Source of the DNA: Candidatus Copromonas avistercoris (nom. illeg.)
GTDB taxonomy: Bacteria; Bacillota; Clostridia; Lachnospirales; Lachnospiraceae
Length of the DNA stretch: 51,397 nt
Reading direction: 5' to 3'
NCBI GenBank assembly: GCA_018713185.1
Contig: DVFQ01000072.1
Coordinates: 1 to 51,397, forward strand
In this document: positions 3,527 through 29,946 of the stretch, one piece after another
How the letters are laid out: each line of letters begins with the position of its first letter
How positions within the stretch are numbered: position 1 is the stretch's first letter
Translations under genes and position numbers: made by a program
The notes under the pieces: generated by a model
What the model saw: the letters and a program-made list of their open reading frames with translations, nothing else
Databases searched by the model: none
Told to the model about the DNA's origin: nothing

Positions 3527-3659
3527 GTATTTTCCTTTACTTTGCGCGCCCAATCCGCTACAATAAAATAAGAGGCAGTCTGGCGGGGCCGGTTTCCTTA
3601 TGGCGCGGATTGTCATCACAGAAAAGAAAGGGCAGTGTCTCCCACTGCAGGGTGAACGA

Positions 3660-6317: not shown

Positions 6318-6351
6318 AAGCCCGGAAACGGCCAAAGGTTCCGGGCTTTTT
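6318..6351 (+). terminator. Intrinsic terminator after the fusion oxidoreductase
   Basis: AGCCCGGAA-acggccaaagg-TTCCGGGCT stem followed by TTTTCC. Confidence 0.75.
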
Positions 6352-6471
6352 CCTGTAAATAGAGGCAGAAATGTGGAAAAAGGCTTCGTAGCATGGAATT
6401 ATTGTGGAAAGAACGGCGGGAATGTGATAGAATAGCCGGGTAGGAAAGACAGCAGGAATGAGGAGAGAGGA

Positions 6472-7101
6472 ATGAGCATTGAGGAGCTGATCGGACGGTA
6501 TCCGAATCTGGAGGTATGCAGAGGCTCGCTGGAAGCCGCGTATAAGACTCTGGAAGAATGCTTTGCGGGAGGCGGAAAGCTTTTGATCGCGGGAAATGGT
6601 GGGAGCGCCGCCGATTCCGATCATATTGTGGGGGAGCTGATGAAAGGCTTTGTAAAGCGGCGGCCGCTTTCGGAGGAGTTGAAGCAGGCTCTTGAGGCTG
6701 CGGATCCGATTCGCGGAAAGGAGCTGGCAGAAAAACTCCAGGAAGCGCTTCCGGCCATCGCCCTGACAAACCACGCGGCGCTATCGTCGGCCTTTGCCAA
6801 CGATGTGGACGGGGTTTTAAGCTATGCCCAGCAGGTGAACGGCTATGGACGGACCGGCGATGTATTCCTTGGAATCAGCACTTCGGGCAATGCGGAAAAC
6901 GTGATGTACGCGGCGGTGACGGCCAGGGCGAAAGGGATGCGGGTGATCGCCCTGACGGGAAAGACGGGCGGAAAGCTGGGAGCCTTCGCCGACATTTCCA
7001 TTATTGTTCCGGAACAGGAGACATACAAGATCCAAGAGCTTCATCTTCCGATCTACCATGCGCTCTGCCTGATGCTAGAGGAACGGTTCTATGAGCGGTA
7101 A
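6472..7101 (+). CDS. SIS-domain sugar-phosphate isomerase, GmhA (sedoheptulose-7-P isomerase) family
   Basis: GGKLLIAGNGGSAADSDHIVGEL, VFLGISTSGNAENV and ALTGKTGGKL motifs typical of GmhA/DiaA-type SIS proteins. Good RBS. Confidence 0.8.
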   Translation: MSIEELIGRYPNLEVCRGSLEAAYKTLEECFAGGGKLLIAGNGGSAADSDHIVGELMKGFVKRRPLSEELKQALEAADPIRGKELAEKLQEALPAIALTNHAALSSAFANDVDGVLSYAQQVNGYGRTGDVFLGISTSGNAENVMYAAVTARAKGMRVIALTGKTGGKLGAFADISIIVPEQETYKIQELHLPIYHALCLMLEERFYER

Positions 7102-8953
7102 GAAGGCTTTGGCCTGGAATCTGCTGGTTCCGTTTTTGATGCTTTTGGTGTCGGAAGGAGCGACGGGGAATCTTTTTCGTCTTTCCGCGCCGGGCGTGAT
7201 TTTGGGGACGGCGGTTTATTACATCCTGTATCTGGGGGTATTCTTTTTTGCAGGAACCACGAAGGCGTCCTGGCTGCTTTTAAATCTGGCGGTTTACGGG
7301 CTGGCGGCGGGGGAATACTTTGTTATCAGCTTCCGGGAGCGGCCGGCGATGATCTGGGATGTGCTGGCCCTGCGGACGGCGATGACGGTATCCGCCAATT
7401 ACCGGTTTACGGTTACGCCCCGGCTGGTCCTTACATTCCTGGGAACCCTTCTTTTGGGAATTGGTTCCTGGAAGATTCCGCTGCGCTTGGAAAACAGGAA
7501 GATACGATGGAAGGCGCGGGGAGCCTGGGCAGGTGTGACTGCGGCCTTTGCCGTGTTGCTTTACGGCGTTTTGACGCCGGCCCTTAAGCTTTCAGTTCCC
7601 ATGTGGGACCCGATCATCAGCTTTGAGCGGCAGGGATTTTTATTGTCTACGGTGCTTTCCCTTGAGACGCTGTTTCCGCAGAAACCGGCGGGATATGAAA
7701 CGGAGACGGCCCGGAAGCTATTGGAACGATTGGAGAAAGAAGCCGGTGCAGGAGAGGAACCTGGCAGCGAAACGGAGCTGCTTGGCAGGAACGAAACGGT
7801 GGTTCCAGAGAATGTGATCTGTATCATGAACGAGAGCTTCGCCGACCTTCGGATTTTCAACGGCCTGGTTTCGGGAAATTCCTTTGAGACGGACGGCCCG
7901 TTCCTTTCTTACTATGACAGCCTTTCGGAAAACGCGCAGAAGGGCTGGCTGTATGTTCCCGTATTCGGCGCGATGACGGCCAACAGCGAGTATGAATTTT
8001 TAACGGGAAATTCCTGCGCCTTTGTGCCCCAGGGCTCGATCCCGTATCAATTTTATACGAAGCCGGGCGATGGCTCTTTGGCCCGGGCCTTTGGAGAGGC
8101 CGGATACCGGACGGCTGCTATGCATCCTTATCCTGGCTATAACTGGAACCGGACGGAAGCTTATGAAAATCTGGGCTTTGATGAGTTTTTGGATCAGGAT
8201 TACTATGAAGCCTCCGGTTTCCTGGATGAGGGAGAAGCGGGCGGATCTGCGGACAGCAGGATGCCGAGGGGATATTTAAGCGACGCGGCGGATTATGAAG
8301 CGCTGATCCGACAGGTGGAAGAGAAAAAGCCGGGCGAGAAGCTGTTTTTATTCAACGTGACCATGCAGAACCACGGCGGCTATGAGGTGGCGGATTTTCC
8401 GGCCGATGTGCATGTGACGGCGGTAAACGGAGAGGACTGTCTGGGAGAATATCCCAAGGCGGATCAGTATCTGACTCTGATGAAGCGGTCGGACGAGGCG
8501 TTAAAAATGCTTCTTGACTATTTTTCCGCTTGTCCCCAGCCGACGCTGATCGTCTTATTCGGGGATCATGAGCCCAGTGTGGAAACTTCTTTTTACGAGG
8601 CGCTTTACGGTACGCGGTGGAGCCAGGTTCCGGGAGAGCAAAAGCGGTATTCCTTTGTGACGCCGTATCTGATCTGGAGCAACTACGAACGGGACGCCGG
8701 TGACTTGGGGGATATGAGCGCCTTTATGCTGGGCGGCCAGGTACTACGGGCGGCGGGGATGGAAGCCGGAGGCTTCGGCTATGCCGTCGAACGATTAAGA
8801 GGAGAGTACCCGATGGTCCATTCCATGGGCCTTCTGACAAGGGACGGCCAGTTCCTGGACGTGCTGGAAACGGGGACCCTGGATCTTTCCCAGACCGTAA
8901 AAGAATACCATATGCTGCAGTACTACAGAATGTTTGAGGAGAAACCGGAATAA
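7091..8953 (+). CDS. LTA synthase / sulfatase-family membrane phosphotransferase (LtaS-like)
   Basis: N-terminal multi-TM block followed by an alkaline-phosphatase-superfamily domain (CIMNESFADLR, GAMTANSEYEFLTGN, LFGDHEPS). The start overlaps the preceding stop by 11 nt. Confidence 0.8.
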   Translation: MSGKKALAWNLLVPFLMLLVSEGATGNLFRLSAPGVILGTAVYYILYLGVFFFAGTTKASWLLLNLAVYGLAAGEYFVISFRERPAMIWDVLALRTAMTVSANYRFTVTPRLVLTFLGTLLLGIGSWKIPLRLENRKIRWKARGAWAGVTAAFAVLLYGVLTPALKLSVPMWDPIISFERQGFLLSTVLSLETLFPQKPAGYETETARKLLERLEKEAGAGEEPGSETELLGRNETVVPENVICIMNESFADLRIFNGLVSGNSFETDGPFLSYYDSLSENAQKGWLYVPVFGAMTANSEYEFLTGNSCAFVPQGSIPYQFYTKPGDGSLARAFGEAGYRTAAMHPYPGYNWNRTEAYENLGFDEFLDQDYYEASGFLDEGEAGGSADSRMPRGYLSDAADYEALIRQVEEKKPGEKLFLFNVTMQNHGGYEVADFPADVHVTAVNGEDCLGEYPKADQYLTLMKRSDEALKMLLDYFSACPQPTLIVLFGDHEPSVETSFYEALYGTRWSQVPGEQKRYSFVTPYLIWSNYERDAGDLGDMSAFMLGGQVLRAAGMEAGGFGYAVERLRGEYPMVHSMGLLTRDGQFLDVLETGTLDLSQTVKEYHMLQYYRMFEEKPE

Positions 8954-8968
8954 ATTCCGGGGTGAGGG

Positions 8969-11236
8969 ATGAAGAAACGAGAATTGGCGGCGCTGATTGT
9001 GATGGCCATGGCGGCGGTATCCGCTCTGTTGATCGGAATCGGCGAGATCTACGTAATCGGAGTGGACGGAGACCGTTTAAAGGAGACGGAGACGCTGCAT
9101 CTTTTGGGAGAAACGGCGGCTCTTTTTGCCGTTTTATTCCTGACCCTTTCTCTGATCCGCCGCCGGGCGGCCTGCGCGCTGCTTTTGGGCGCCGTTTCAT
9201 CGGTTTTCCTGTGGCTGCATCAGGCGTTCCTCCCGGTTCTCGCAAGCGGACTATATCTATGCGCCCTGGTGGGGACGGGCCAGATCTTCCTCGGCCTTTT
9301 GGACCGGAAACGTCAGCTGGCCCCGGGGCATCTTGTGACCTGGATGGCTTCGCTGATCTTAGGCTGCGGGCTTACGATCCTTTTGTTCTGTGCGATGTCC
9401 CTTTTGGGCGCCGGAGGGATCGGCAATACGAGAGCCGCGGCCGTCATCCTTTTTCTGGCCGCCGGATTTCGATGGGTTCAGAGCCTTAAAACAAAGGAGG
9501 GGAGCTACCGCCTTCAGAAGCTTTTCCATGAAAGCGGGCGGATCCCGCCGGTTATCGCGGGCCTTTTGGCGTTCATTCTTGCTATGCTGCTTTTGCAGGC
9601 CGGGCGCATGAACCTGTGCATTGACTATGATTCCCTCCATTACAGCCTCCGCTCCCAGTATGTTCTGGATAACGGCGGCGGAATTTACGAGAATCTGGGA
9701 AGCGTCAATGTGGTCTATACGTATTCCAAAGGGCTGGAGATCCTGCTGCTGCCGCTTTCCGGGCTGCCCTCCCACAGCTTTTTCCTGGCCTTCCAGCTCT
9801 GGTTTGCGGCCGGGATCCTGATCGTCTGTCACAGGATCGTAACGCTGTTTGTCAACCGGCGGCTGGGGATCCTCTGCATGGCGGTTTTGGCCAGCATCCC
9901 CGGGATCATGAATATGAGCATTTCCGCGAAGACGGATATTTCGACGGCGTTTTTTCAGCTGTTGATGCTCTATTTTCTCCTGCTGTACACGAAGCGCCAG
10001 AAAAGCAGCTACCTGGTGATGGCGGCCAACGCCTTTATGATGACGATGGTGCTAAAGCCCACCGCTCTGGTATTTTCCACCATTGCGGCCGGAACCGCCG
10101 GATTATTCCTTCTGCTTAACGGCCGTCTCCGTTTCCGGCTCCGGGGAAGCCTGCTTCCCTCCGCGGGCGTCATGGCGGCGATGTGGGGAATGGTCTGGCT
10201 GCGGACCTGGCTCCATACGGGGCTTCCGGTTACGTCCGTCTTTTATTCCATCTGGGCGAAGCTGGGTTTTACGGTCCGTTACCCGTACCGGTTTGACGAT
10301 CTTCCCTCCAACGGAGGCGCGCTTTTTTCTTTAAGCGGGCTTAAGCATATTTTAAAACGGCTGTTCGGCGTCTTGGTGGCTCCGGTGGGAGAGGATATGG
10401 CCCATGTGCGGATCGCCTGGGGGACTCCGCTTCTGGTGATCTTTCTTTTGCTTTTGCTGCTTCCGGCGTTTGTAAAGATGCGCGGGCTGGAGAAGCGGGA
10501 CAAAAAGCCGCTCTGGTGCCTGATCTGGGTTTTATTGACCAACGGAGCGGCGAGCTTAGCGGCGCTGTATCTTTTGTGGCAGGTGGACGGCAATTATTTT
10601 ATTCTTTTGTACACGCTGCTGGCGATGACGGCGGTGATCATTTTGGGCAAGCTTCAAAGCCGGTTCTTGGCGCGCCTGATCATGAAAATGCTGGTCCCCT
10701 TCGCGGTTTTTAATGTTACCGTTACGGCCGTCAGCAACTGGGCCGGAGCGCTGGGGCTCAGTCCGGTGCGCCTTGTCCATGCCGGATACTATGATCACCG
10801 GGCCGAGGAGAAGGAGCGGCTGATCCACTACGGCAATCAGGAAATCTGGGAAATCCTGGCGGAGGATCCGAAGACGCGGGTCTTGATCTTCGGCGAGCAG
10901 CCGGAGCTTTTAAGCTTCCCGTGCAACGCCCAGAGCTATACGGACATTGAGGGCAGCGGGGGAAATTATATGATCACCGCCAGTACCGAGGCCCTTGTGG
11001 AATACCTGATCTTTGCGGATATGGATTATGTTTATCTGGGAAGCGGGTATCTGAGGCCGGGAACAGAAGCCTGGGATCATGTGATATCCATGCTGCGGGA
11101 CGGATATCTGACGGAGCTTACGTACGAAAATGGCAACGCGCTGGCAGCGTTTTGTCCGGAACCGCCGGCGCCGGAGGATCCGGACGGAGCGGTGGAAGAA
11201 TTTTCCGCCAATTACTGGCCTGGGGAACAACAGTAG
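8969..11236 (+). CDS. Large polytopic membrane protein, putative GT-C fold glycosyltransferase
   Basis: 755 aa with many hydrophobic helices. Acidic loop motif CIDYDSLHY follows an early TM, resembling the DxD/ExD...H/Y motif of the first external loop in PMT/ArnT-type GT-C enzymes. Soluble C-terminal ~150 aa. Confidence 0.55.
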   Translation: MKKRELAALIVMAMAAVSALLIGIGEIYVIGVDGDRLKETETLHLLGETAALFAVLFLTLSLIRRRAACALLLGAVSSVFLWLHQAFLPVLASGLYLCALVGTGQIFLGLLDRKRQLAPGHLVTWMASLILGCGLTILLFCAMSLLGAGGIGNTRAAAVILFLAAGFRWVQSLKTKEGSYRLQKLFHESGRIPPVIAGLLAFILAMLLLQAGRMNLCIDYDSLHYSLRSQYVLDNGGGIYENLGSVNVVYTYSKGLEILLLPLSGLPSHSFFLAFQLWFAAGILIVCHRIVTLFVNRRLGILCMAVLASIPGIMNMSISAKTDISTAFFQLLMLYFLLLYTKRQKSSYLVMAANAFMMTMVLKPTALVFSTIAAGTAGLFLLLNGRLRFRLRGSLLPSAGVMAAMWGMVWLRTWLHTGLPVTSVFYSIWAKLGFTVRYPYRFDDLPSNGGALFSLSGLKHILKRLFGVLVAPVGEDMAHVRIAWGTPLLVIFLLLLLLPAFVKMRGLEKRDKKPLWCLIWVLLTNGAASLAALYLLWQVDGNYFILLYTLLAMTAVIILGKLQSRFLARLIMKMLVPFAVFNVTVTAVSNWAGALGLSPVRLVHAGYYDHRAEEKERLIHYGNQEIWEILAEDPKTRVLIFGEQPELLSFPCNAQSYTDIEGSGGNYMITASTEALVEYLIFADMDYVYLGSGYLRPGTEAWDHVISMLRDGYLTELTYENGNALAAFCPEPPAPEDPDGAVEEFSANYWPGEQQ

Positions 11237-11254
11237 AGGGAGAGGAACAGAGGA

Positions 11255-13237
11255 ATGGAACTGGGGGAAAAGCTGGAGCGAGGATGGAGACGGAGTACGG
11301 AGAGCCTTTTGATTTTCGCGGTTCTTCTGGGCTTTGGGTTTTTCATCAACCGGGAAGTAGAGCTTAAGGGACTTTACATGGATGATCTTTATCTGTGGTC
11401 CTGCTATGGGGAGCAGTCCTTCATGGAGTACGTTTTTCCCATGGGCGGGAGCCGGTTCCGCTTTGTTTTCTACCTGGCTTCCTGGCTGGAGCTTCTGTTT
11501 CTGGGCGGTCATGTGGAATGGATGGTTCCGTTCAACATTCTTCTCAACAGCCTGATCGCGTTTTCCATTTACCGGATGTGTCTTTCCTTCAGCAGCGGCC
11601 GGAAGGCGGTGAGCCTGGTCCTGGCGCTGGCATTTTTAAGTTCCCGGATGGCATATTACCAGATCGGCCAGTTTTACGGCCTGATGGAGAGTCTGGGCCT
11701 TTGGGCGGCCGTCGGGATCCTGTATTTCCTGTATCGTTACATGAATGAACGAAATTCCGTCAGCTATTTGTACGGATGTCTTCTGTATTTTCTCGCCAGC
11801 TTCATTCATGAACGGTATATGTCGCTGCTTCCGGCTCTTCTTTTGGCGTTGGCGCTGGCGCCGAAAAGACGCGGGAGCAAGAGATATGAGGATGGAAGGC
11901 GCGGATCTTTAAAGAAAGCCGGCTGGGAAGAGGAGGACGATGGAGAAAACGCCCGGGGAACCGTTCGGGAAACCGCGCAGGAAACCGCAAGAGGGCGTTC
12001 CAGAGGCAGGGGAACCGGGCGCGGCCGGTCCTTTGCGGCTGCCGAATCCGAACTTCCCAAATGGCAGCTGTTTTTGGTCACGCTCCTGGTATTTGGAGCC
12101 ATCCAGGCGATCCGTTTCCTTACGATCGGCACGCTGGCCCCCGCGGGAACCGGAGGAACGGAGGTGGCGGATACCTTTTCCCTGGCGGATTCCATAAGCC
12201 ATGCATGGGAACAGGCGGCCTTTGTATTCGGGCGGAATTCGGGCCCGGATTATCTCTGTATCCTGCCCTATGAGGATTCACCGGACGGGATCCGGCTTTT
12301 GATCCTGTTATCCAACCTGGTGCTGTTTGTATCGGTGGCGCTGTTTGCGGTCTGCGCGGTCAGGGATAGAAGCAGGCTGTTGGTCCACTTGAAAAACGCG
12401 GCGCTGTTCCTTGTGTTTATTGCCATGTGCATCGGTTCTTCCAGCGTTACGATCCGGGTGGAGATGCGCTGGGTATATGTGGTGTTTGCCCTGGCGCTTC
12501 TGTTCTTTTCCTATATGTCCTCGGTAATGGGAAGAGCGGGAGCCCTGGTATTCCTCTATGCCGCCCTTGCCGTTCCCGCGGAAAATTTTTACCGGGATCA
12601 CTGGGACAATTTGTATCTTTGGCCGGAACAGGCGAAGTACAATTCCCTGGCGGAGCAGACCATTGAAAAATACGGTCAGGAGATTTTTGAAAAAGAGGTC
12701 TATATTATCGGCAATACCTATGAGATGAGCGAGTTTACCGCCGAGACCTTTTTAAAGGTCTATGACCGGGCGGGAAGCTACGACGGCAGGAGCATCCAGT
12801 TTATCGACAGTGATCTCGATTTTAAAGAGCTTTCGGAGGACATGGTGATCCTCGCTGAGGATCCGGAGCATAACGCCTACCAGGACGTAACGGATTTTGT
12901 AAAAAAACAGCGGCTCAACTATGCCTATGGAAGTTATGAGGACGGCTGGGTTGACGAACACGCGAAGATCGTGTTTATGAACGGCGAAAGGGATCAGGTA
13001 ACGCTGTCCTGCTATTATCCGGGAACCGTGACCGGCGACCAGGTGTGCCAGGTGACGGTCAACGGGAAGCGGATGCCGGATCTGGTGTTTACGGATCAGA
13101 ATATGACCTATGAGATTCCCTCCGCGCCGTACCAGATGATCGAGCTGGAGCTGTCCTGCAACTTTTACGTTGCGAATGCGAAGGAAACGAGAGGAGAAGA
13201 AAAGCTGGCGATGATCGTCACGATCAACGCGGAATAA
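11255..13237 (+). CDS. Large polytopic membrane protein, putative GT-C-like, with charged low-complexity loop and soluble C-terminal domain
   Basis: 660 aa with an early loop motif LYMDDLYLW and multiple TM helices. A ~65 aa Arg/Gly/Glu-rich insert sits at 11861-12060. The C-terminal ~200 aa are hydrophilic. Confidence 0.5.
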   Translation: MELGEKLERGWRRSTESLLIFAVLLGFGFFINREVELKGLYMDDLYLWSCYGEQSFMEYVFPMGGSRFRFVFYLASWLELLFLGGHVEWMVPFNILLNSLIAFSIYRMCLSFSSGRKAVSLVLALAFLSSRMAYYQIGQFYGLMESLGLWAAVGILYFLYRYMNERNSVSYLYGCLLYFLASFIHERYMSLLPALLLALALAPKRRGSKRYEDGRRGSLKKAGWEEEDDGENARGTVRETAQETARGRSRGRGTGRGRSFAAAESELPKWQLFLVTLLVFGAIQAIRFLTIGTLAPAGTGGTEVADTFSLADSISHAWEQAAFVFGRNSGPDYLCILPYEDSPDGIRLLILLSNLVLFVSVALFAVCAVRDRSRLLVHLKNAALFLVFIAMCIGSSSVTIRVEMRWVYVVFALALLFFSYMSSVMGRAGALVFLYAALAVPAENFYRDHWDNLYLWPEQAKYNSLAEQTIEKYGQEIFEKEVYIIGNTYEMSEFTAETFLKVYDRAGSYDGRSIQFIDSDLDFKELSEDMVILAEDPEHNAYQDVTDFVKKQRLNYAYGSYEDGWVDEHAKIVFMNGERDQVTLSCYYPGTVTGDQVCQVTVNGKRMPDLVFTDQNMTYEIPSAPYQMIELELSCNFYVANAKETRGEEKLAMIVTINAE

Positions 13238-13294
13238 GGAAGATAAATGGATCGGACAGGATGATCCGTTTGTCATATGGTTAGGAGAATTGAA

Positions 13295-14479
13295 ATGGAT
13301 GAAGTGAATATCGTCCTTGGAGCCCTTGCGGCGTTGGCTTTGGCCGCGGCTTCCGGATTTTTCTGGAAACGGAAGAATATCGCGGCCCATTTAAGCCCCG
13401 TCAGGCGGGAGCTGAAAAAGGAGAAGGCCTGGCTGCGGCGCGGGGAGTATAACGCCGCTATGGTAAAAGGCCGCCAGAATCTGGAGCTCCTTTTGAAGCT
13501 GGTGGCGGAGTTCCACGGGATCCAGCTGGACAATACGGCCCAGGCGGTGGCCAATGCCAAGGCCGGGCCGGAAAAGAACGTCTTTCTGGCGCACCGGCGT
13601 CAGGGACGGCGGGTAAAGAAGGTTATGACCCATCAGCAGTTCGGCTGGTGGCTGGACGCCAACGGGTATCTGGACCGGGTCGGAAAGTGGGAGCTGAACG
13701 AAATCCGCTTAATTGGAAATAAAGCGGTGCATGAGAATTATGCTTCCAAGGAGGATGCCTGGAGCCAGTACAATTATCTGGAGGATGTCTTTAAGCTGAT
13801 TTCGGAGAAGAATGCCGGTCATGAGCGAAAGGCCACGGACGCGGCAGAGAAGAAGAGAAACGAAGGGGCTGCGTCCTGCGAGGCAAAAAAACAGATGGTT
13901 CCGGCGGCGAAGAAAGAGACCCAGAAGAATAAAACAAAGAAGAAAGAAGCAAAGCAGAAAGAACCGGCGAAGCCGGAACAGCCGGAAGCCGGAAAAGCAA
14001 AGCAGAAAAAGAAGAAGCAGAAAACGGCGGCGAAACAGGAAGCTGTGAAGAACCAGGAAGCGCCAAAGAAGCAAGAGACGGCGAAGAAACAGGAACCGCC
14101 AAAGAGTCAAGAACCTGCGGAGAAGAAACTGGAAGAAAAGAAACAGGAAGAGAAGAAGCAGGCGGAGCAGGCGCCGGTCAAGCTCAGCGCGTCGGCGAAG
14201 CGGCGGGCAAGAAGGAAACGGGCGAAGGCCAGACAGGCTCAGGCACAGCAGGCGGCGGCCAGCCAGGAGACGGAAGCGCGGAAGGAACCGGCCGGTCAGG
14301 CGAAGAAGAAAGCGGACGCGGCGGCAGACAAGCCGGAGAAGAAGACAGAGGCGGCGGCAGACAGACCGCAGGAGAAACCAGAGGCGGTATCAGGCGCAAA
14401 GAAGCGCCGCAGGCCGCGCAGGAGGAAACCGAAGCCGCAGGCGGCGGGCAATGGAGGAGTGAATGAAGCAGCGAATTAA
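13295..14479 (+). CDS. Membrane-anchored protein with DUF4145-like helical domain and ~210 aa Lys/Glu/Gln/Ala-rich disordered tail
   Basis: ATG at 13295 lies 6 nt after AGGAGA. One TM helix (IVLGALAALALAAASGFFW), the motif EIRLIGNKAVHE, then degenerate KKQE/KKQEP-type repeats and RRRPRRRKPKP. The 3' end overlaps the next gene by 17 nt. Confidence 0.6.
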   Translation: MDEVNIVLGALAALALAAASGFFWKRKNIAAHLSPVRRELKKEKAWLRRGEYNAAMVKGRQNLELLLKLVAEFHGIQLDNTAQAVANAKAGPEKNVFLAHRRQGRRVKKVMTHQQFGWWLDANGYLDRVGKWELNEIRLIGNKAVHENYASKEDAWSQYNYLEDVFKLISEKNAGHERKATDAAEKKRNEGAASCEAKKQMVPAAKKETQKNKTKKKEAKQKEPAKPEQPEAGKAKQKKKKQKTAAKQEAVKNQEAPKKQETAKKQEPPKSQEPAEKKLEEKKQEEKKQAEQAPVKLSASAKRRARRKRAKARQAQAQQAAASQETEARKEPAGQAKKKADAAADKPEKKTEAAADRPQEKPEAVSGAKKRRRPRRRKPKPQAAGNGGVNEAAN

Positions 14480-15971
14480 GGAATGGTGCTATTTCGTATT
14501 TCCGGCAGCAGGAGTCCTGTTTTATCTGGCGTATCTGCACCGGTCTTCCATCGACATGGTTTATTCCGACTATATCCGCCTGATCAATTCATATCTTCCG
14601 GATGTATGGGATCCGGAAAAGTTTTTCGTTCCCGATCTTTTGACCAGGATCCCGGTGAATTATCTGGAGCGGGGAATCAATGTGGAGCTTTTTGGCTACA
14701 GCGTAGCCTTTGACCGGGTCATGGGAGTCTTGGCCTTCGGCCTCTCCGCGTTGGCGATCGGGATTTATGCCAGACGGCAGCGGATCGGCCTTTTTTGGTA
14801 CGGGGCCGCAATGGTGATCATGTTCAGCCTCAATAAATGGGAGATGCTTTACAACGGAACCGGCTGGGCCCATTTCCTGGCGTTTGCCTTTTTCTTTTTC
14901 AACTATGTGCTGCTGAATCGGGTCTATGAGGTGCGCAACGGAAGAAAAACCGTAAACGGCGGCCGGATCAGCGGCCGCTCCTGGAGGCGGATGCTCATTG
15001 GACTTGCGGTCCTCCCGGCGGTGATCACCATCGGGGTCGCCGGCCCCTACTGCGCGATCTACACGATGACCTTGCTCTTGTCCTACGGGTTTATTGCGCT
15101 TAGGAACCGGTTTTTTATGTATCAGGTGCTGAAGGAGCATGACCCGGATTGGAAGCGGGACCGGCGCGCGGCGGCTATTGGGGTCATCGACTCCAGGATG
15201 TGCGCTTTGACGGACAGGCAGATTATCTGCCTTTTGGCGGCGGCGGTCTGGCCCCTCCTTTTATATCTTTGGAGCAATTCCCAAGCGGTTTACGAGCATG
15301 CCGGTACGGTGGATACGCCGCTTCTTACGGCTTTTTTGCAGGAACCGAAATTTTTTATTAAATTCTTTCTGAAATCTTTTGCTTCCGCCGTTTTTGGAGT
15401 AGAATTAATTTCCAGACATATGGCGGAGCTGCCGGATATGGTCTGGTATCTTCTGGGACTGCTGGTGTTAGCGGCGTACTTTTTCGCTCTGTGGATGAAT
15501 TTTTATTACCGGATCTCTGAGTGTACGATCCTGCCGTTAATGCTTTTGGCCGGAGGCGGCATGAACCATCTGCTGATCCTTGTCAGCCGCTATATTTTCA
15601 TGCCCAATGCCGATTACGGAATGAGTTCCCGGTACGCGCTTCAGTACCAGATCGGGATCCTGGGGATCCTGCTTACTTTCGCGCTGGCGGCGCAAAAGCA
15701 GCGGGAAAAGAAACCGGGGCAGGCGGTCCGGCTTTTGGCGGCAGCCGTGACGGCGGTATTCCTCGCGGGAAATCTGATCACGACGGCGGAGGAATTTTCC
15801 TATGGCATCCACCGGAAGAATTACAATATGGGGAATCGGGAAATCCTTTTGAATTTTGAGCAGTTCTCGGACGAAGAGCTGGAAACGACGCTGGAGTATC
15901 ACAAGCCCGGCTGCCGGGAGGCGCTGCAGATTTTAAAGGATCACCAGTGGAATATTTTCAGAGAGCCTTAA
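14463..15971 (+). CDS. Polytopic membrane protein (third GT-C-like / polymerase-like protein of the operon)
   Basis: 502 aa, about 10 or more hydrophobic segments, early motif IDMVYSDYIRL. No recognisable soluble catalytic domain. Confidence 0.5.
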   Translation: MKQRIKEWCYFVFPAAGVLFYLAYLHRSSIDMVYSDYIRLINSYLPDVWDPEKFFVPDLLTRIPVNYLERGINVELFGYSVAFDRVMGVLAFGLSALAIGIYARRQRIGLFWYGAAMVIMFSLNKWEMLYNGTGWAHFLAFAFFFFNYVLLNRVYEVRNGRKTVNGGRISGRSWRRMLIGLAVLPAVITIGVAGPYCAIYTMTLLLSYGFIALRNRFFMYQVLKEHDPDWKRDRRAAAIGVIDSRMCALTDRQIICLLAAAVWPLLLYLWSNSQAVYEHAGTVDTPLLTAFLQEPKFFIKFFLKSFASAVFGVELISRHMAELPDMVWYLLGLLVLAAYFFALWMNFYYRISECTILPLMLLAGGGMNHLLILVSRYIFMPNADYGMSSRYALQYQIGILGILLTFALAAQKQREKKPGQAVRLLAAAVTAVFLAGNLITTAEEFSYGIHRKNYNMGNREILLNFEQFSDEELETTLEYHKPGCREALQILKDHQWNIFREP

Positions 15972-15998
15972 GGGGCGCGAAACAATGGAGGAGCATTC

Positions 15999-16775
15999 AT
16001 GAAGGTAGTTATTCTTGCAGGCGGATTTGGAACCAGGATCAGCGAAGAGAGCCATCTGAAGCCGAAGCCGATGATCGAAATCGGAGAGCAGCCGATCCTG
16101 TGGCATATTATGAAATATTATTCCCAGTTCGGATATAATGAATTTATTATCTGCCTGGGCTATAAGCAGTATGTGGTAAAGGAATATTTTGCCGACTATT
16201 TCCTTCATACCTCGGATGTCACCTTTGACCTGACCAATAACTCGATGAAGGTTCACAATAATTACGCGGAGCCGTGGAAGGTGACGTTGATCGATACCGG
16301 GCTTTATACCATGACCGGCGGGCGGGTAAAGCGGATCCGTCCCTATGTGGGAGACGAGCCGTTTATGCTGACCTACGGCGACGGCGTAGCCAACGTGAAT
16401 TTAAAGGAACTGGAGGAGTTCCACAAGAGCCACGGAAAGATCGCCACGCTTACGGCGGTGAATATTGGCCAGCGGTTCGGCGTTTTGGATCTGGACGACG
16501 CCGGGAAGATCCAGGCCTTCCGGGAAAAGGACGATGACGACGGAAGCTTGATCAACGGCGGATTTATGGTCTTAAATCCCGGCGTGTTTGATTATATCGA
16601 GGGAGACGAGACGGTCTTTGAGCAGGAGCCGCTGCGGAATCTGGCGCGGGACGGAGAACTGATGGCGTTCCGTCATGAGGGTTTCTGGAAATGCATGGAT
16701 ACTCAGCGGGAAAAGCAGCAGCTGGAGGTAATGTGGCAGTCGGGAAAGGCGCCCTGGAAGATCTGGAAAGGATGA
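15999..16775 (+). CDS. rfbF: Glucose-1-phosphate cytidylyltransferase
   Basis: MKVVILAGGFGTRISEESHLKPKPMIEIGEQPILWHIMKYYSQFGYNEFIICLGYK is near-canonical RfbF/DdhA. Confidence 0.92.
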   Translation: MKVVILAGGFGTRISEESHLKPKPMIEIGEQPILWHIMKYYSQFGYNEFIICLGYKQYVVKEYFADYFLHTSDVTFDLTNNSMKVHNNYAEPWKVTLIDTGLYTMTGGRVKRIRPYVGDEPFMLTYGDGVANVNLKELEEFHKSHGKIATLTAVNIGQRFGVLDLDDAGKIQAFREKDDDDGSLINGGFMVLNPGVFDYIEGDETVFEQEPLRNLARDGELMAFRHEGFWKCMDTQREKQQLEVMWQSGKAPWKIWKG

Positions 16776-16778
16776 CCT

Positions 16779-17948
16779 ATGGAGAAGGACATTTTAGAAT
16801 TTTATAAGGGAAAACGGGTGCTGGTGACCGGGCATACCGGATTTAAGGGGAGCTGGCTTTGCCGGATCCTTGTAAACGCGGGGGCGGCGGTGACCGGCTA
16901 CGCCCTCGAGCCGCCGACGGAGCCGGATCTCTTTTCTATGGCGGGACTTGAGGGAAGGATGGAGTCGGTCATCGGCGATATCCGGGATCTGGAAAAACTA
17001 AAGAAGACGTTCGAGGCGGCGCAGCCGGAGATCGTGTTTCACCTGGCGGCGCAGCCCATTGTCCGCGATTCCTACAAGGATCCGGTTTATACCTATGAAA
17101 CCAATGTCATGGGAACGGTTCATATTATGGAATGCGCCCGGCTGTTTCCCTGCGTCCGTTCGCTTTTGAATGTGACGACGGATAAGGTATATGAAAACCG
17201 GGAATGGGAATACGGGTACCGGGAAACGGACCGGCTGGACGGCTATGATCCCTACTCCAACAGCAAATCCTGTTCAGAGCTGGTGACCCACAGCTATAAA
17301 AAATCCTTCTTTACGGACGGGCGGTGCGCGGTTTCCACCTGCCGGGCCGGAAACGTGATCGGCGGCGGAGATTTTGCCAACGACCGGATCGTTCCCGACT
17401 GTGTCCGGGCGGCGGTGAAGGGAGAGGCCATTGTGGTCCGGAATCCTTATTCCACCAGGCCGTATCAGCATGTTTTGGAGCCGCTGTTTGTATATCTTCT
17501 TATCGCCATGGCCCAATATGAGGATCCTTCCTTTGCTGGATATTATAATGTGGGGCCCGACGATGAGGACTGCATAACAACAGGCCAGCTGACGGATCTG
17601 TTCTGCTCGGCCTGGGGCGGGGGCGTATCCTGGATCAATCAAAGCGACGGCGGCCCCCATGAGGCCAATTTTTTGAAGCTGGACTGCTCGAAGATAAAAA
17701 AGGTGTTCGGATGGCGGCCGGCGTTCCATGTGCGGGAGGCTGTGGAGCTTTCGGCTTTGTGGTATCGGACCTGGGCTGAGGGCGGCGAAGTGACGGCGGT
17801 TATGGACAGCCAGATCCGGCGGATGTTTTCGCCCGGGAGAAATCTGGCTGAAAAAGATTTGGCTGAAAAAGATCTGGCTGAAAAAAATCTGGCTGAAAAA
17901 GATTCGTCCGGAAAAGATGGAGGAAATGAAATATGTTTGAGAATATGA
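16779..17948 (+). CDS. rfbG: CDP-glucose 4,6-dehydratase with repeat-containing C-terminal extension
   Basis: SDR fold: VLVTGHTGFKGSWL, catalytic YSNSK. A ~40 aa tail with (LAEKD)n lies beyond the usual end of the family. Confidence 0.9.
   Translation: MEKDILEFYKGKRVLVTGHTGFKGSWLCRILVNAGAAVTGYALEPPTEPDLFSMAGLEGRMESVIGDIRDLEKLKKTFEAAQPEIVFHLAAQPIVRDSYKDPVYTYETNVMGTVHIMECARLFPCVRSLLNVTTDKVYENREWEYGYRETDRLDGYDPYSNSKSCSELVTHSYKKSFFTDGRCAVSTCRAGNVIGGGDFANDRIVPDCVRAAVKGEAIVVRNPYSTRPYQHVLEPLFVYLLIAMAQYEDPSFAGYYNVGPDDEDCITTGQLTDLFCSAWGGGVSWINQSDGGPHEANFLKLDCSKIKKVFGWRPAFHVREAVELSALWYRTWAEGGEVTAVMDSQIRRMFSPGRNLAEKDLAEKDLAEKNLAEKDSSGKDGGNEICLRI
17842..17916 (+). repeat. 15-bp in-frame tandem repeat (about 5 copies) at the 3' end of rfbG
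   Basis: ATCTGGCTGAAAAAG / ATTTGGCTGAAAAAG / ATCTGGCTGAAAAAA / ATCTGGCTGAAAAAG / degenerate ATTCGTCCGGAAAAG, encoding LAEKD repeats. Confidence 0.9.
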
Positions 17949-19285
17949 CGGAGGGTCAGGCGCGCCGGGAGATCCTGGAGGCGGTGGCCGAATACGCAAA
18001 AAAGTTTCATGAGCAGAAGAAAGAATTCCATGAGGGCGACCGGATTCCCTACGCGTCCCGGGTCTATGACCATGAGGAAATGGTGAATCTGGTGGACAGC
18101 GCTTTGGAGTTTTGGCTGACCTCGGGCCGCTACACCGAGGAGTTTGAGAAAAAGCTGGCGGATTATCTGAAGGTTCGCTACTGCTCTCTGGTCAATTCCG
18201 GTTCCTCGGCGAATTTGATCGCGTTTATGGCGTTGACTTCGCCGCTTTTGGGGGACAGGCGGATTGGCCGCGGCGACGAGGTTATTACCGTGGCGGCCGG
18301 ATTCCCGACGACAGTGACGCCGGCGATCCAGTATGGAGCGGTGCCGGTATTTGTGGATGTTGCGATCCCCCAGTATAATATTGACGTAACCAAGCTTGAG
18401 GCTGCCCTTTCGGAAAAGACGAAGGCGGTAATGTTGGCCCATACGCTGGGAAATCCCTTTGACCTGACGGCGGTAAAGGAGTTCTGCGACGCCCATGGTC
18501 TTTGGCTGGTGGAGGATAACTGCGACGCCCTGGGGACGGTCTATGAGCTGAAGGGAGAAAGAAAATTTACGGGAACCATCGGCGATATCGGCACCTCCAG
18601 CTTTTATCCGCCCCATCATATGACCATGGGTGAGGGCGGAGCGGTCTATACCGACAATCCGCTGTTAAATAAGATCATCCGCTCCTTTAGGGACTGGGGA
18701 CGGGACTGCGTCTGCCCGTCGGGACACGACAATGTCTGCGGCCACCGGTTCGACAGGCAGTACGGCGAGCTGCCGTTAGGATATGACCATAAATACGTAT
18801 ATTCCCATTTTGGATACAATCTGAAGGCGACGGATCTGCAGGCGGCCATCGGCTGCGCCCAACTGGATAAGTTCCCGTCCTTTGTGGAAAAGCGGCGCCA
18901 TAATTTCGCCCGTCTGTGGAAAAACCTGGAGGATACCCAGGACCAGCTGATCCTTCCGGCGGCGGCGGAGCATTCCGAGCCCAGCTGGTTCGGCTTTTTG
19001 ATCACCTGCCGGGAAGGCGTGGACCGGAACCGGCTGGTGCGGTATATTGAGAGCAAAGGCGTCCAGACCCGGATGCTGTTCGCGGGGAATCTGACGAAGC
19101 ATCCCTGCTTCGATGAGATGAGAAAAACCGGCGGGGGCTACCGGATCGCAGGCGGTCTGGAAAATACGGATCGGATCATGGCGGATACCTTCTGGATCGG
19201 CGTTTATCCGGGAATGACCGATGAGAAGATCGACTATATGGCCCGGGTGATCAAGGAAGGACTTTCGCAGCAGAAAGAGGGATAG
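17933..19285 (+). CDS. rfbH: CDP-6-deoxy-L-threo-D-glycero-4-hexulose-3-dehydrase (E1, RfbH/DdhC type; PMP and [2Fe-2S])
   Basis: DegT/DnrJ/EryC1 fold with His replacing the Schiff-base Lys (SFYPPHHMTMGEGG). Cys cluster DCVCPSGHDNVC (C-x-C-x7-C) is typical of E1. Confidence 0.88.
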   Translation: MFENMTEGQARREILEAVAEYAKKFHEQKKEFHEGDRIPYASRVYDHEEMVNLVDSALEFWLTSGRYTEEFEKKLADYLKVRYCSLVNSGSSANLIAFMALTSPLLGDRRIGRGDEVITVAAGFPTTVTPAIQYGAVPVFVDVAIPQYNIDVTKLEAALSEKTKAVMLAHTLGNPFDLTAVKEFCDAHGLWLVEDNCDALGTVYELKGERKFTGTIGDIGTSSFYPPHHMTMGEGGAVYTDNPLLNKIIRSFRDWGRDCVCPSGHDNVCGHRFDRQYGELPLGYDHKYVYSHFGYNLKATDLQAAIGCAQLDKFPSFVEKRRHNFARLWKNLEDTQDQLILPAAAEHSEPSWFGFLITCREGVDRNRLVRYIESKGVQTRMLFAGNLTKHPCFDEMRKTGGGYRIAGGLENTDRIMADTFWIGVYPGMTDEKIDYMARVIKEGLSQQKEG

Positions 19286-19290
19286 GGATT

Positions 19291-20136
19291 ATGGCACAGG
19301 CATCCTTTGACCTGACAAAGGTTCATCAGGCGAACTTAAAGATGTTAAAGGAGATCGACCGGATCTGCCGGAAATATAAGCTTCAGTATGCGCTGGACTC
19401 GGGAACGCTTTTAGGGGCGGTCCGCCACGGCGGATTTATTCCCTGGGACGACGACGCGGACGTGATGATGACCCGGAGCAACTATGAAAAGTTCGCGAAG
19501 GTGGCGAGACGGGAGCTGCCGGAAGGCATGTCCTTCGTGGAGCCCAATGAATATCACGGCGGGAAGGCGTTTTATGATTTCGTCTCCCGGGTGACCTACG
19601 ATAAGAGCCAGAAATTTGAGGAATCAAAGAAGATGGCGTTTTATGACGACAAGATCAGCCGCCTGTGCGTGGATATTTTTGTAACCGACGCGCTTCCGGC
19701 CGGTCCTGTCTCGAAACGGCTTACCAAGCTTTGCCATTGTATCGTGTACGGATTGGCCCTGGGCCATCGGTACGGGCTGTCCCTTTCAGACTATAAAGGA
19801 ATGATGAAGCTGTTCGTCTTTGTCCTTTCCTCTGTGGGGCGGCTGATCCCGTTTCCGGTGATCTACCGGTGTTGGCGCAGGCTTTGCTTAAAGGACCGGA
19901 AGAAAAATTATCCGCTTTATTTTTACAGCGGCTACGCGCCGGATTATTTTTATGTGGAGATGGAAAAGGACTGGGAGGACCAGGTGGAGGAAATGGAATT
20001 TGAAGACACGAAGTTTTACGTGCCCTCGGGATGGAAGCAGCTTTTGACCCAGCTTTACGGGGATTTCATGAAGCTTCCGCCTAAGGAGAAGCAGATTCCG
20101 GAGCATTCCGATATGGAGATACAGATTTATGAGTAA
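19291..20136 (+). CDS. LicD-family phosphotransferase
   Basis: DSGTLLGAVRHGGFIPWDDDADVMM is the hallmark LicD nucleotidyltransferase-fold motif. Confidence 0.85.
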   Translation: MAQASFDLTKVHQANLKMLKEIDRICRKYKLQYALDSGTLLGAVRHGGFIPWDDDADVMMTRSNYEKFAKVARRELPEGMSFVEPNEYHGGKAFYDFVSRVTYDKSQKFEESKKMAFYDDKISRLCVDIFVTDALPAGPVSKRLTKLCHCIVYGLALGHRYGLSLSDYKGMMKLFVFVLSSVGRLIPFPVIYRCWRRLCLKDRKKNYPLYFYSGYAPDYFYVEMEKDWEDQVEEMEFEDTKFYVPSGWKQLLTQLYGDFMKLPPKEKQIPEHSDMEIQIYE

Positions 20137-21085
20137 GCTGCTTTCCGTGGTGGTTTCCGTATATAACGAGGAGCCGGGACTGCGGGAATTTTATGAGGAA
20201 ACAGGAAAAATATTAAAGACGCTGCCAAAGCCCTGGGATTATGAGCTTTTATTTATCAACGACGGGAGCGCCGACGGCTCCCTTGCGGTTTTAAGGGAGT
20301 TCGCGGCAACGGACCCGAAGGTGAAGATCGTGAACTTTTCCCGCAATTTCGGTCATGAGGCGGCGATGATCGCCGGGATCGATTATGCGGCGGGAGATGG
20401 GATCGTCTGCATGGACGCGGATCTTCAGCACCCGCCGGAATGTATCCCGGAAATCCTAAAAAAGCTGGAAGAGGGATACCAGGTGATCAACATGGTCCGC
20501 ACCCGGAATAAGACGGCGGGATTTTTAAAGAACGTCACGTCTTCGGCTTTTTACCGGCTGATCAACTGTCTTTCCGACGTGAAATTCGAGGCCAACGCCT
20601 CTGATTTTTTTGCCGTCGGAAAAGAGGCGGCCCAGGTCTTAAGGAGCAGCTACCGGGAAAAGGTACGGTTCCTCAGAGGCTATGTGCAGAGCATCGGTTT
20701 TAAACGGACGACGCTGGAATATGAGGCCAGGCCGCGGTTTGCGGGAGAAAGTAAATACAGCATCCGCAGCCTCCTTAAATTTTCCATTAATACGATCCTC
20801 TGCTTTTCCGACCTGCCTTTAAAGCTTGGGATCTATTCCGGGGTCCTGGTGGCGCTATTCGGCCTGGCGGTGATGATCTATACGATCTACACCTGGGCCA
20901 AGTACGGGGCGCCCAGCGGATACGCGACTATCGTGGTGCTTTTGTCCTTTATGTTCGCGATGCTGTTCATCATTGTGGGAATTATCGGCGAGTATATCGC
21001 GATCCTGTTCGCGGAATTAAAGGACCGTCCGGTTTATATCGTGCAGGATACGGAAAACATTTCCGGCGGGAAGGAAAGGGATTAG
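20129..21085 (+). CDS. GT2 polyprenyl-phosphate glycosyltransferase (GtrB/ArnC/CsbB-like)
   Basis: LSVVVSVYNEE, INDGSADGS and DADLQHPPE motifs plus two C-terminal TM helices. The start overlaps the licD-like stop. Confidence 0.85.
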   Translation: MSKLLSVVVSVYNEEPGLREFYEETGKILKTLPKPWDYELLFINDGSADGSLAVLREFAATDPKVKIVNFSRNFGHEAAMIAGIDYAAGDGIVCMDADLQHPPECIPEILKKLEEGYQVINMVRTRNKTAGFLKNVTSSAFYRLINCLSDVKFEANASDFFAVGKEAAQVLRSSYREKVRFLRGYVQSIGFKRTTLEYEARPRFAGESKYSIRSLLKFSINTILCFSDLPLKLGIYSGVLVALFGLAVMIYTIYTWAKYGAPSGYATIVVLLSFMFAMLFIIVGIIGEYIAILFAELKDRPVYIVQDTENISGGKERD

Positions 21086-21260: not shown

Positions 21261-21881
21261 ATGAAATTAATAAAGAAAATGACGGTACTTTCTCTGGCGG
21301 TCCTGGCCCTTGGCGGCTGTACCCAGAGCAGTATTTCTTCCAACGCCCCGGATATGGTTGAGGGTGTGGATCCGGCGAAGATGAACCAGGAGGAGGATGA
21401 GACGCTTCCCAGAGAAGAAAACATCCTGCTGGAGAATGAGGACGAGAAGGAGCCGGAGACCATGTATGAGTGGGAGCAGGTGACGGATGAAACCAACAGT
21501 CTGTTCCTGGATACGGATCTGTATCCCCTGGCCGCGGCCTTTAACTATACGGCGGATGAGGAAGCTTTGGCGATTTCCCTGGATTGGACGTTAAAGGACG
21601 GCGCGACGGAAGAGGACGCGATGGATTACGCCGTGGAGCTGGTAAAGAATTTTAACGACATTATCGCGGTCCAGACGACGGATCTGGAGGCATCCTCCGA
21701 TACTTCTTTCGGTTCCCTTTGGGATACCTTCTCCCTCGATCTTACGATCGATACGGAGGACGGAACGGTTCTTTTAGAGAAAAGCTACGGCGCGGGCGAG
21801 GAGATCGACCTGGTAATGCCGGAGTATAATGACGAAGGCCCGGAGCCGGTGGTAGAAGAGGACGTGCCGAAGAAGGCTTGA
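21261..21881 (+). CDS. Acidic secreted lipoprotein, unknown function
   Basis: Signal peptide with lipobox LALGGC. The mature part is very Asp/Glu-rich. Strong RBS AAGGAGG. Confidence 0.75.
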   Translation: MKLIKKMTVLSLAVLALGGCTQSSISSNAPDMVEGVDPAKMNQEEDETLPREENILLENEDEKEPETMYEWEQVTDETNSLFLDTDLYPLAAAFNYTADEEALAISLDWTLKDGATEEDAMDYAVELVKNFNDIIAVQTTDLEASSDTSFGSLWDTFSLDLTIDTEDGTVLLEKSYGAGEEIDLVMPEYNDEGPEPVVEEDVPKKA

Positions 21882-29882: not shown

Positions 29883-29946
29883 TACCATTTATACTATATA
29901 TTGCATACAAGAAACAGAAAAAAGTACAATCGGAGAGGAAGCGCCA

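Follow-up and report, generated by a model that had tools for sequence, protein, structure and literature searches.

In the group A carbohydrate (GAC) system, export of the polymer by an ATP-binding cassette (ABC) transporter is followed by glycosylation through GacI, GacJ, GacK and GacL and by the addition of glycerol phosphate (GroP) through GacH (PMC8035078; 10.1101/337519; 10.1101/180810). GacI and GacJ serve as synthase of undecaprenyl phosphate (Und-P)-linked N-acetylglucosamine, GacK as flippase, GacL as GT-C-type glycosyltransferase and GacH as phosphoglycerol transferase. We analysed a stretch of 51,397 nucleotides from Candidatus Copromonas avistercoris (contig DVFQ01000072.1, in the following the window), in which eleven genes at positions 6472–21085 appear, by analogy, to have the GAC pathway as their closest known logic. 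On balance, we favour the reading that a conserved Lachnospiraceae system makes a heptose-containing glycopolymer of the cell envelope and that these genes form the half of it devoted to extracytoplasmic modification. Shared with the GAC machinery are a cytoplasmic polymer exported by an ABC transporter (seen in the relatives of this locus), subsequent glycosylation by GtrB-type and GT-C enzymes, and GroP transfer by an enzyme of the LtaS fold. The locus differs in its heptose rather than rhamnose pathway, in three unrelated GT-Cs per one family 2 glycosyltransferase (GT2), in an extra RfbFGH–LicD block, in the absence of GacJ and GacK equivalents from the locus and in its occurrence in Clostridia. 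The design is thus a known one, namely post-export glycan modification by GtrB-type and GT-C enzymes together with a GacH-like enzyme; new are the presence of three different GT-C families, of which two lack a model, the connection with a heptose pathway in a Gram-positive commensal, and an RfbFGH–LicD block without reductases.

Multi-component glycosylation systems (Gtr of Shigella and Salmonella, CsbB–GtcA–YfhO, and CsdAB/CD/EF with CflA of Lactococcus lactis) resemble the locus in combining an Und-P-sugar GT2 with polytopic GT-Cs that carry an outer-loop DxD-like motif; as in L. lactis, the flippase gene may lie outside the locus (PMC8035078). What sets the locus apart are the lack of GtrA, Wzx or MATE proteins in the locus, a ratio of GT2 to GT-C that is not 1:1, and two GT-C families without a Pfam model. 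The initial annotation of this stretch, made from the sequence letters, had held that the gene mix matches no textbook pathway; it does match the scheme of streptococcal rhamnopolysaccharides, in which multi-component transmembrane glycosylation is combined with a GacH-type transferase. Its view of the whole as a module for decoration or extension outside the membrane, and not as a Wzx/Wzy locus, fits our results, and the system is, as it had supposed, without a description in the searchable literature: we found no paper on this locus or on LicD linked to dideoxyhexose genes.

The eleven open reading frames (ORFs) are co-directional and tightly packed on the + strand in the ORF list of the window. 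Four junctions overlap (7091/7101, 14463/14479, 17933/17948 and 20129/20136) and the remaining gaps span 3–39 nt, a spacing from which we take the genes to form a genuine operon. Coordinates and overlaps are exactly those first annotated, the bracketing terminator on the left and promoter on the right are both present as hairpin with T5 and promoter-like site, and the enzyme classes guessed at the time (GmhA, LtaS-like, CDP-sugar, LicD, GtrB-like) were all borne out by hidden Markov models. The features are as follows.

6318–6351, + strand: intrinsic-terminator-like hairpin and T-run, GCCCGGAAAC-GGCCAAAG-GTTCCGGGC-TTTTT, GC-rich, read directly; closes the upstream 880-aa oxidoreductase gene
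6405–6433, + strand: promoter-like site before the operon, TGGAAA-17-TAGAAT with TG-extended −10; consensus match only
6472–7101, + strand: ORF1, GmhA, 209 aa
7091–8953, + strand: ORF2, GacH/LtaS-type phosphoglycerol transferase, 620 aa
8969–11236, + strand: ORF3, M755, PMT_2-like GT-C, 755 aa
11255–13237, + strand: ORF4, M660, GT-C-fold membrane protein, 660 aa
13277–14479, + strand: ORF5, K400, single-pass membrane protein, 400 aa
14463–15971, + strand: ORF6, M502, GT-C-fold membrane glycosyltransferase, 502 aa
15999–16775, + strand: ORF7, RfbF, glucose-1-phosphate cytidylyltransferase (TIGR02623), 258 aa
16779–17948, + strand: ORF8, RfbG, CDP-glucose 4,6-dehydratase (TIGR02622), 389 aa
17933–19285, + strand: ORF9, RfbH (E1), CDP-6-deoxy-4-keto-glucose 3-dehydrase (NF011936), 450 aa
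19291–20136, + strand: ORF10, LicD-family CDP-X phosphotransferase (Pfam LicD), predicted cytoplasmic, 281 aa
20129–21085, + strand: ORF11, GtrB/CsbB/ArnC-type polyprenyl-phosphate GT2, 318 aa
21165–21193, + strand: promoter-like site of the next gene (acidic lipoprotein, 21261–21881), marking the right border

A consensus terminator scan did not list the hairpin at 6318–6351, probably on account of its loop length, and the region after 21085 holds no convincing terminator. An Rfam scan of the leader returned no element and no riboswitch; the sole Rfam match in the window is the L10 leader (2282–2420, RF00557, 73.9 bits).

We scanned species-representative genomes with the M755 alignment, which yielded 79 loci from Lachnospiraceae and mislabelled metagenome-assembled genomes (MAGs), and mapped the window proteins and extra genes onto all of them, with Pfam-annotated contexts for examples. 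Among the named relatives, Candidatus Copromonas faecavium comes closest (72%); other carriers include Alitiscatomonas aceti, Pilosibacter fragilis, Hungatella hathewayi DSM 13479, Enterocloster aldenensis, C. clostridioforme, C. symbiosum, C. porci and Lacrimispora, and the order of all eleven genes is kept in a Lachnoclostridium MAG at ~55% identity. Recurrence of the gene order at 35–99% protein identity in dozens of species is more than chance. Four arrangements can be distinguished: (i) in the clade of the window, the eleven-gene order stands directly after rplK-rplA-rplJ-rplL, with the LtaS-like gene in some members; (ii) most other loci read Wzt, a 977–1303-aa fusion of methyltransferase, GT2 and family 1 glycosyltransferase (GT1), GT1, HddC, HddA, GmhB, GmhA, optionally the LtaS-like gene, a 264-aa GT2, M755, M660, M502, RfbF, RfbG, RfbH, LicD and GtrB; (iii) Hungatella and Lacrimispora loci hold heptose genes, the three GT-Cs, acyltransferases and GtrB, and no RfbFGH–LicD; and (iv) in C. 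symbiosum-type loci M660 is swapped for another large unannotated protein and a GT2. The Wzt of the second arrangement consists of ABC_tran and Wzt_C and thus has a C-terminal glycan-binding domain; this extended order occurs in ~25 loci and, truncated or varied, in ~15 more, among them those of Enterocloster aldenensis, C. clostridioforme and C. porci. In C. symbiosum ATCC 14940 (locus L057, 11028–14550), an 834-aa protein without a Pfam family and a 310-aa GT2 stand in place of M660; modular swapping of this kind is typical of antigen-diversifying loci. One or two Acyl_transf_3 membrane acyltransferases adjoin the GT-C genes in the Hungatella/Lacrimispora loci (L085, 12312–14509; L035, L060, L062, L065, L069 and L077), which suggests O-acylation of the same polymer.

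The relatives also bear on ORF1, which we assign to GmhA, the sedoheptulose-7-phosphate isomerase of the SIS_2 family, from its sequence matches. It reaches 70 bits with Pfam SIS_2, its top NCBIfam families are those of phosphoheptose isomerases (with scores short of the equivalog cut-offs), GmhA chains in the Protein Data Bank (PDB) match at E 2e-30 in two stretches because ORF1 holds an insertion of ~25 aa, and the motifs ISTSGN and QELH can be found by eye. In ~45 related loci all four GDP-heptose enzymes are adjacent; in locus L087, for example, the best NCBIfam families of the respective genes are HddC, HddA and GmhB, with GmhB above its cut-off. The window holds GmhA alone. Since GmhA adjoins HddC-HddA-GmhB in the relatives, the "orphan" GmhA would be a remnant of the GDP-heptose pathway; the earlier statement that GmhA comes without other heptose-nucleotide genes thus holds for the window and fails for its relatives. 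Similarly, the lack of an ABC exporter, once taken as a feature of the system, is an artefact of viewing a single window: ~40 related loci have the same genes directly after HddC-HddA-GmhB, large cytoplasmic glycosyltransferases and Wzt. By this comparison the window appears to represent the distal portion of a larger locus conserved in Lachnospiraceae; the module is normally contiguous with an ABC-transporter-dependent glycan assembly line, and its substrate polymer is probably exported by an ABC transporter; the retrieved flanks of the relatives reach Wzt and stop short of Wzm. The genes upstream of locus L034 are unrelated. A GHMP kinase of the window (29668–30894) was considered as HddA and rejected, as it was identified as IspE.

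The three large membrane proteins had been annotated as GT-C-like, and this is upheld for M755 through PMT_2 and for M660 and M502 through Foldseek, the E-values of the fold matches being modest. M755 is predicted to have ~12–15 transmembrane helices and an extracytoplasmic C-terminal domain. The window protein matches PMT_2 weakly (21.8 bits), and 9 of 12 diverse family members match as well, the best at E 3e-8. An exact look-up of the 755-aa protein gave no match; homologues that are 99% identical are called 10 residues shorter, as 745 aa, and the true start is probably at 8999. In 745-aa numbering, D209 and D211 in DYDSLHY, together with further acidic residues, are at least 95% conserved in 77 homologues, and the loop that carries this motif comes after a KR-rich loop.

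M660 and M502 belong to no Pfam family, and profile searches of PDB sequences with the alignments of all three membrane proteins returned no meaningful matches. AlphaFold2 models of M660 and M502 were built on alignments of database homologues and compared with the PDB by Foldseek. For M660 (predicted local distance difference test, pLDDT, 72; predicted template modelling score, pTM, 0.65), the whole-length matches near the top are all GT-C enzymes (yeast STT3, PglB, EmbC, AftA and AglB; E 7.5e-3 to 0.18, TM-score ~0.35), and its C-terminal beta-sandwich separately matches the carbohydrate-binding domain of BcsB and CBM35-like domains. PMT_2 reaches its gathering score in one distant member of the family; the family is small, with 778 clusters at 50% identity among 1.84 billion. 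D43 and D44 in YMDDLYLW are at least 95% conserved, the YMDD motif is invariant, and the protein has a disordered R/G-rich loop. The model of M502 (pLDDT 82, pTM 0.86) matches ArnT with a probability of 0.99, AftB with 1.00 (TMq 0.46, root-mean-square deviation 6.8 over 482 columns), STT3 with 0.97 and also Pmt4, compared to probabilities <0.25 for transporters; D36, D47, D58 and E127 are at least 95% conserved in 60 homologues, and Pfam scans of M502 family members gave a single match, to DUF6541. The structural check proposed with the initial annotation, as run for the 660- and 502-aa models, thus returned GT-C enzymes as the best whole-length matches of high probability.

Conservation of the acidic motifs was scored over homologues of 35–99% identity from related loci. 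In all three proteins the acidic residues sit just after an early transmembrane helix, and, from charge counts, these motif loops are predicted to be extracellular, as are the acidic C-terminal domains. Comparison of the three alignments with one another by hhalign gave no significant similarity (E 0.11, 0.0097 and 0.53; probabilities <5%), and M755, M660 and M502 appear from this to be three distinct families rather than recent paralogues. Sources name the GT-C homologues only "hypothetical protein".

One GtrB-type gene facing three unrelated, co-inherited GT-C families also evokes polymerisation outside the membrane, in which a single Und-P-monosaccharide donor, which could be Und-P-heptose, would serve the GT-Cs in turn as primer, elongator and brancher or capper, so that together they would build an entire oligo- or polysaccharide domain. 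Mycobacterial arabinan, made with decaprenyl-phospho-arabinose by AftA, AftB, AftC, AftD and EmbA/B/C, provides the precedent of several GT-Cs with a single lipid-linked monosaccharide donor. AftB is the best structural match of M502, EmbC and AftA are among the matches of M660, and the C-terminal domain of M660 resembles a carbohydrate-binding module (CBM), as found in Emb and GT136 enzymes (PMC11127046). Furthermore, the Hungatella/Lacrimispora loci hold HddC-HddA-GmhB-GmhA, M660, M502, M755 and GtrB, and no other nucleotide-sugar genes; GDP-heptose being the one dedicated sugar pathway there beside GtrB and the trio, Und-P-heptose could be the donor. In contrast to arabinan synthesis, there is no sequence similarity, the donor synthase is of the GtrB type and not a UbiA-type phosphoribosyltransferase, and no sign of polymerisation is seen. 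The large cytoplasmic glycosyltransferases and Wzt of the same loci already explain a polymer backbone, and several L. lactis GT-Cs each add single sugars (PMC8035078). M660 gives way to other genes in C. symbiosum-type loci, a finding that suits swappable decorators more than an obligate assembly line. We consider polymerisation unlikely. Decoration of an exported glycan finds a parallel in pentofuranosylation of the Citrobacter youngae O1/O2 antigens, where a GT-C (GT136) with a C-terminal CBM adds side chains outside to an ABC-exported glycan (PMC11127046), to be compared with the C-terminal domain of M660; that system uses a donor synthase dependent on phosphoribosyl pyrophosphate and a MATE flippase in a Gram-negative periplasm.

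The donor for the three GT-Cs would come from ORF11, which matches the GtrB structure sll0501 over its full length (E 3e-61) and ArnC (E 3e-39), has two C-terminal transmembrane helices and is thus assigned as a GtrB-type Und-P-sugar synthase. It is kept with the GT-C trio in 14 loci without RfbH and LicD, which argues that GtrB provides the GT-Cs with a different sugar. No flippase (GtrA, Wzx or MATE) is found among the eleven ORFs, all of which are accounted for, with gaps of at most 39 nt. By analogy with CflA of L. lactis, the flippase may be unlinked; there, one unlinked CflA serves three systems (PMC8035078).

The best NCBIfam family of ORF11 is PgfS, which raises the alternative of O-glycosylation of surface, S-layer or membrane proteins, as by Pgf of S. 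mutans or streptococcal GtrB/PgtC2; likewise, the Wzt-exported heptose glycan could be an S-layer-type protein glycan. M755 belongs to the protein mannosyltransferase-like PMT_2 family, and the combination of heptose genes, Wzm/Wzt and a methyltransferase–glycosyltransferase fusion presumably resembles the S-layer glycan clusters of Aneurinibacillus and Geobacillus. The Pgf system, moreover, consists of one GT-A and two GT-Cs (PMC11092751). However, the PgfS score of 247 bits is half of the equivalog cut-off of 500 bits, none of the three GT-Cs matches the YfhO family used by Pgf and PgtC2, and no PglL/WsaB-type O-oligosaccharyltransferase was seen. The locus holds no gene for a Ser/Thr-rich substrate, K400 being Lys-rich, Ser/Thr-poor and predicted cytoplasmic, and a GacH-type transferase together with LicD is typical of the modification of polysaccharides or teichoic acids. 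Protein glycosylation is therefore quite improbable as the function of the locus.

ORF2 matches Pfam Sulfatase with 119 bits and, in the PDB, GacH best (3e-11), then LtaS (7e-9). Alignment with GacH shows that ES (Glu), the G(x)TAN motif with the Thr nucleophile, MHP, TMQNH and GDH are all kept; four to five N-terminal transmembrane segments precede an extracellular sulfatase-fold domain, and the tail is acidic. We assign ORF2 from these motifs as a GacH-like phosphoglycerol transferase with a predicted intact active site. The same LtaS-family domain with intact motifs would be expected if the locus were a lipoteichoic acid (LTA) system, in which the LtaS-like enzyme builds a chain of glycerol phosphate on a glycolipid anchor and GtrB, the GT-Cs (CsbB/YfhO-like) and LicD decorate the LTA, a CsbB/YfhO-type logic that is established for LTA (PMC8035078, PMC5836110). 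However, the LtaS-like gene occurs in only ~13 related loci and is absent from most loci that keep all else, so it cannot make the core polymer. The best match is the decorating enzyme GacH and not LtaS, whose equivalog model has a cut-off of 970 bits and gives 41 bits here, and the linkage to a heptose pathway, large glycosyltransferases and Wzt points to an Und-P-linked glycan. An LTA system is very unlikely on these grounds, and the LtaS-like gene appears to be accessory.

K400 combines one transmembrane helix and a small conserved domain with a disordered Lys/Ala/Glu-rich tail. Its Pfam scan gave no family, and the faint resemblance to DUF4145 (E 0.016) is not significant. After the transmembrane helix, KR outnumber DE by 95 to 49, Lys makes up 24% of the tail and Ser/Thr are rare; the tail is predicted to be cytoplasmic. 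A role as extracellular binder of an anionic polymer was rejected, because the positive-inside rule places the tail in the cytoplasm. The protein was seen only in the clade of the window and not in every member, confined to loci with at least 50% M755 identity; its counterpart in L001 is 86% identical and called as 352 aa. K400 thus appears to be a clade-restricted accessory outside the system core. Of the initial view that the LtaS-like gene and the polybasic protein are parts of the system, the presence of both stands; their standing is reduced to that of accessories, the former in a subset of loci and the latter in one clade. Low-complexity segments of K400 and M660 vary in length between strains: K400 measures 400 aa here and 352 aa in L001, its Lys-rich tail being encoded by short tandem repeats at 13909–14387, and M660 has 660 aa here and 656 aa in L001, with repeats at 11945–11988 behind its Arg/Gly-rich disordered loop. 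RfbG ends in a (DLAEK)n tail from a 15-nt × 4.1 tandem repeat (17842–17903); it has 389 aa here and 374 aa in the near-identical contig L001, and the repeat number appears to vary.

RfbF, RfbG and RfbH pass their equivalog cut-offs (TIGR02623, 410 versus 300 bits; TIGR02622, 434 versus 278 bits; NF011936, 721 versus 423 bits). RfbH has His in the position of the Schiff-base Lys (HHMTMGEGG) as well as a CxCx7C motif, both in 43 of 43 homologues; with the catalytic Lys changed to His and the Fe–S motif in place, an aminotransferase for a 4-amino sugar was rejected. The block thereby resembles the CDP-3,6-dideoxyhexose pathway (RfbF/G/H/I with RfbJ/S/E of Salmonella and Yersinia; AscA–F) in its RfbF/G/H enzymes and E1 hallmarks. 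It differs in lacking RfbI/AscD and a 4-ketoreductase or epimerase, and in being followed by LicD rather than a Leloir dideoxyhexosyltransferase. Neither an E3 reductase (RfbI/DdhD/AscD) nor a 4-ketoreductase/epimerase was found among the ORFs of the locus or in 34 fully covered blocks, where the start of RfbF and that of GtrB are 4064–4552 bp apart, a span that therefore leaves no room for either enzyme. Absence of E3 is plausible in a ferredoxin-rich anaerobe, and a study of Clostridium flagellin glycosylation lists RfbF/G/H/S without RfbI (PMC13317340).

ORF10 matches Pfam LicD with 121.6 bits, and its DDDxD motif is kept in 42 of 42 homologues. LicD stands directly after RfbH in all 42 loci (median gap 30 nt) and never occurs without RfbH in these loci, a co-variation which points to LicD as the enzyme that draws on the CDP-sugar branch. 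The locus holds no genes resembling LicA/LicC, TarI/J or Gct, and its sole cytidylyltransferase is RfbF, a glucose-1-phosphate equivalog. The invariant RfbF-RfbG-RfbH-LicD block without E3 or 4-ketoreductase suggests that LicD may transfer a sugar-phosphate from a CDP-sugar. Literature on LicD and sugar-1-phosphate transfer returned known LicD systems only. With fukutin and FKRP the protein shares the LicD domain and the DDDxD motif; FKTN and FKRP form a phosphodiester from a CDP-activated donor (PMC4873967). The donors known for this family are CDP-choline, CDP-ribitol and CDP-glycerol, in contrast to the CDP-hexose derivative made by the only linked CDP-donor genes here. Phosphocholine is the classical LicD product. 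Elsewhere in the window (41303–42025, − strand), a 239-aa protein has one sub-threshold Choline_bind_2 repeat (21.6 bits, cut-off 27), which, if real, would hint at phosphocholine on a wall polymer.

In the system that we favour, with a heptose-containing glycopolymer modified outside the membrane, cytoplasmic enzymes would assemble a glycan that contains D-glycero-D-manno-heptose on Und-P, and Wzm/Wzt, encoded outside the window, would export it, with GmhA feeding the GDP-heptose pathway. The GtrB-like enzyme would put a sugar on Und-P, an unlinked flippase would turn the Und-P-sugar over, and the three GT-C enzymes would each place the sugar at a different site of the polymer or lengthen a short branch. 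RfbF/G/H would produce CDP-4-keto-3,6-dideoxy-D-glucose, with a general ferredoxin or flavodoxin as reductant, and cytoplasmic LicD, using this product or CDP-glucose, would add a phosphodiester-linked substituent before export. Where it is carried, the LtaS/GacH-like enzyme would add glycerol phosphate from phosphatidylglycerol on the outside.

Several points weigh against this scheme. Continuity of the operon is read from gene spacing only. HddA/HddC/GmhB, Wzm/Wzt and cytoplasmic glycosyltransferases are found neither in the window nor in the 10 kb upstream in its clade, so that a heptose polymer in this organism is extrapolated from relatives. The Foldseek E-values of M660 and M502 are weak (~1e-2), with TM-scores of 0.3–0.46. 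Because E3 and a 4-ketoreductase are both missing, the final CDP-sugar is uncertain, and we know of no LicD enzyme shown to use a CDP-sugar.

The operon lies directly 3′ of the nusG-rplK-rplA-rplJ-rplL cluster (334–2967, including the L10 leader), a placement that recurs across the clade of the window (loci L003–L021 and L044); the slot after rplJ-rplL is usually occupied by rpoB-rpoC. Between rplL and the operon, an 880-aa fusion protein (3600–6242, + strand) joins Pyr_redox_2, a dimerisation domain, rhodanese, an NIR_SIR ferredoxin-like domain and 4Fe–4S; in this position the gene was otherwise seen solely in Ca. Copromonas faecavium, at 92% identity. As a substitute for E3 it was rejected on account of this restricted occurrence and of the terminator that separates it from the operon. 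Downstream, the gene at 21261–21881 (+ strand) encodes a protein of 206 aa, very acidic, with a signal like that of lipoproteins (…LALGGC) and no Pfam family; it has a promoter-like site of its own and keeps its position after the operon in some relatives (L003, L020 and L044; 40–51% identity). Further away, a 334-aa protein with collagen triple-helix repeats (43397–44404, − strand; Pfam Collagen, 88 bits) adjoins AIR-synthase-related and FAD oxidoreductase genes, and two adjacent OEP/TolC-like proteins (48670–51239, + strand; 26.9 and 43.6 bits, Pfam cut-off 22) are encoded in what is presumed to be a Gram-positive Lachnospiraceae genome.

Enterocloster, Hungatella and C. symbiosum count among the abundant commensals of the gut, some of them linked to disease, whose surface glycopolymers are almost uncharted; a 2025 review of surface polysaccharides of the gut microbiota covers R. 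gnavus as the sole member of the Lachnospiraceae (PMC12413058). For enzymology, the locus offers two uncharacterised GT-C families and a LicD paired with a CDP-deoxysugar pathway without the usual reductases. Its conservation across many genera, together with a modularity like that of antigen loci, makes the product a candidate for a major surface antigen, phage receptor or immune-modulating glycan. A tentative and, in our estimate, rather unlikely extension is that LicD uses a CDP-hexose donor (CDP-4-keto-3,6-dideoxyglucose or a derivative) to link dideoxyhexose-1-phosphate by a phosphodiester to the heptose glycan, that the GtrB-type enzyme and the three new GT-C families assemble an outside branch, possibly from Und-P-heptose, and that the whole is a major surface antigen of abundant gut Lachnospiraceae. 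If true, this would be the first bacterial LicD working on a CDP-sugar, and the glycan would be a surface antigen unseen so far.

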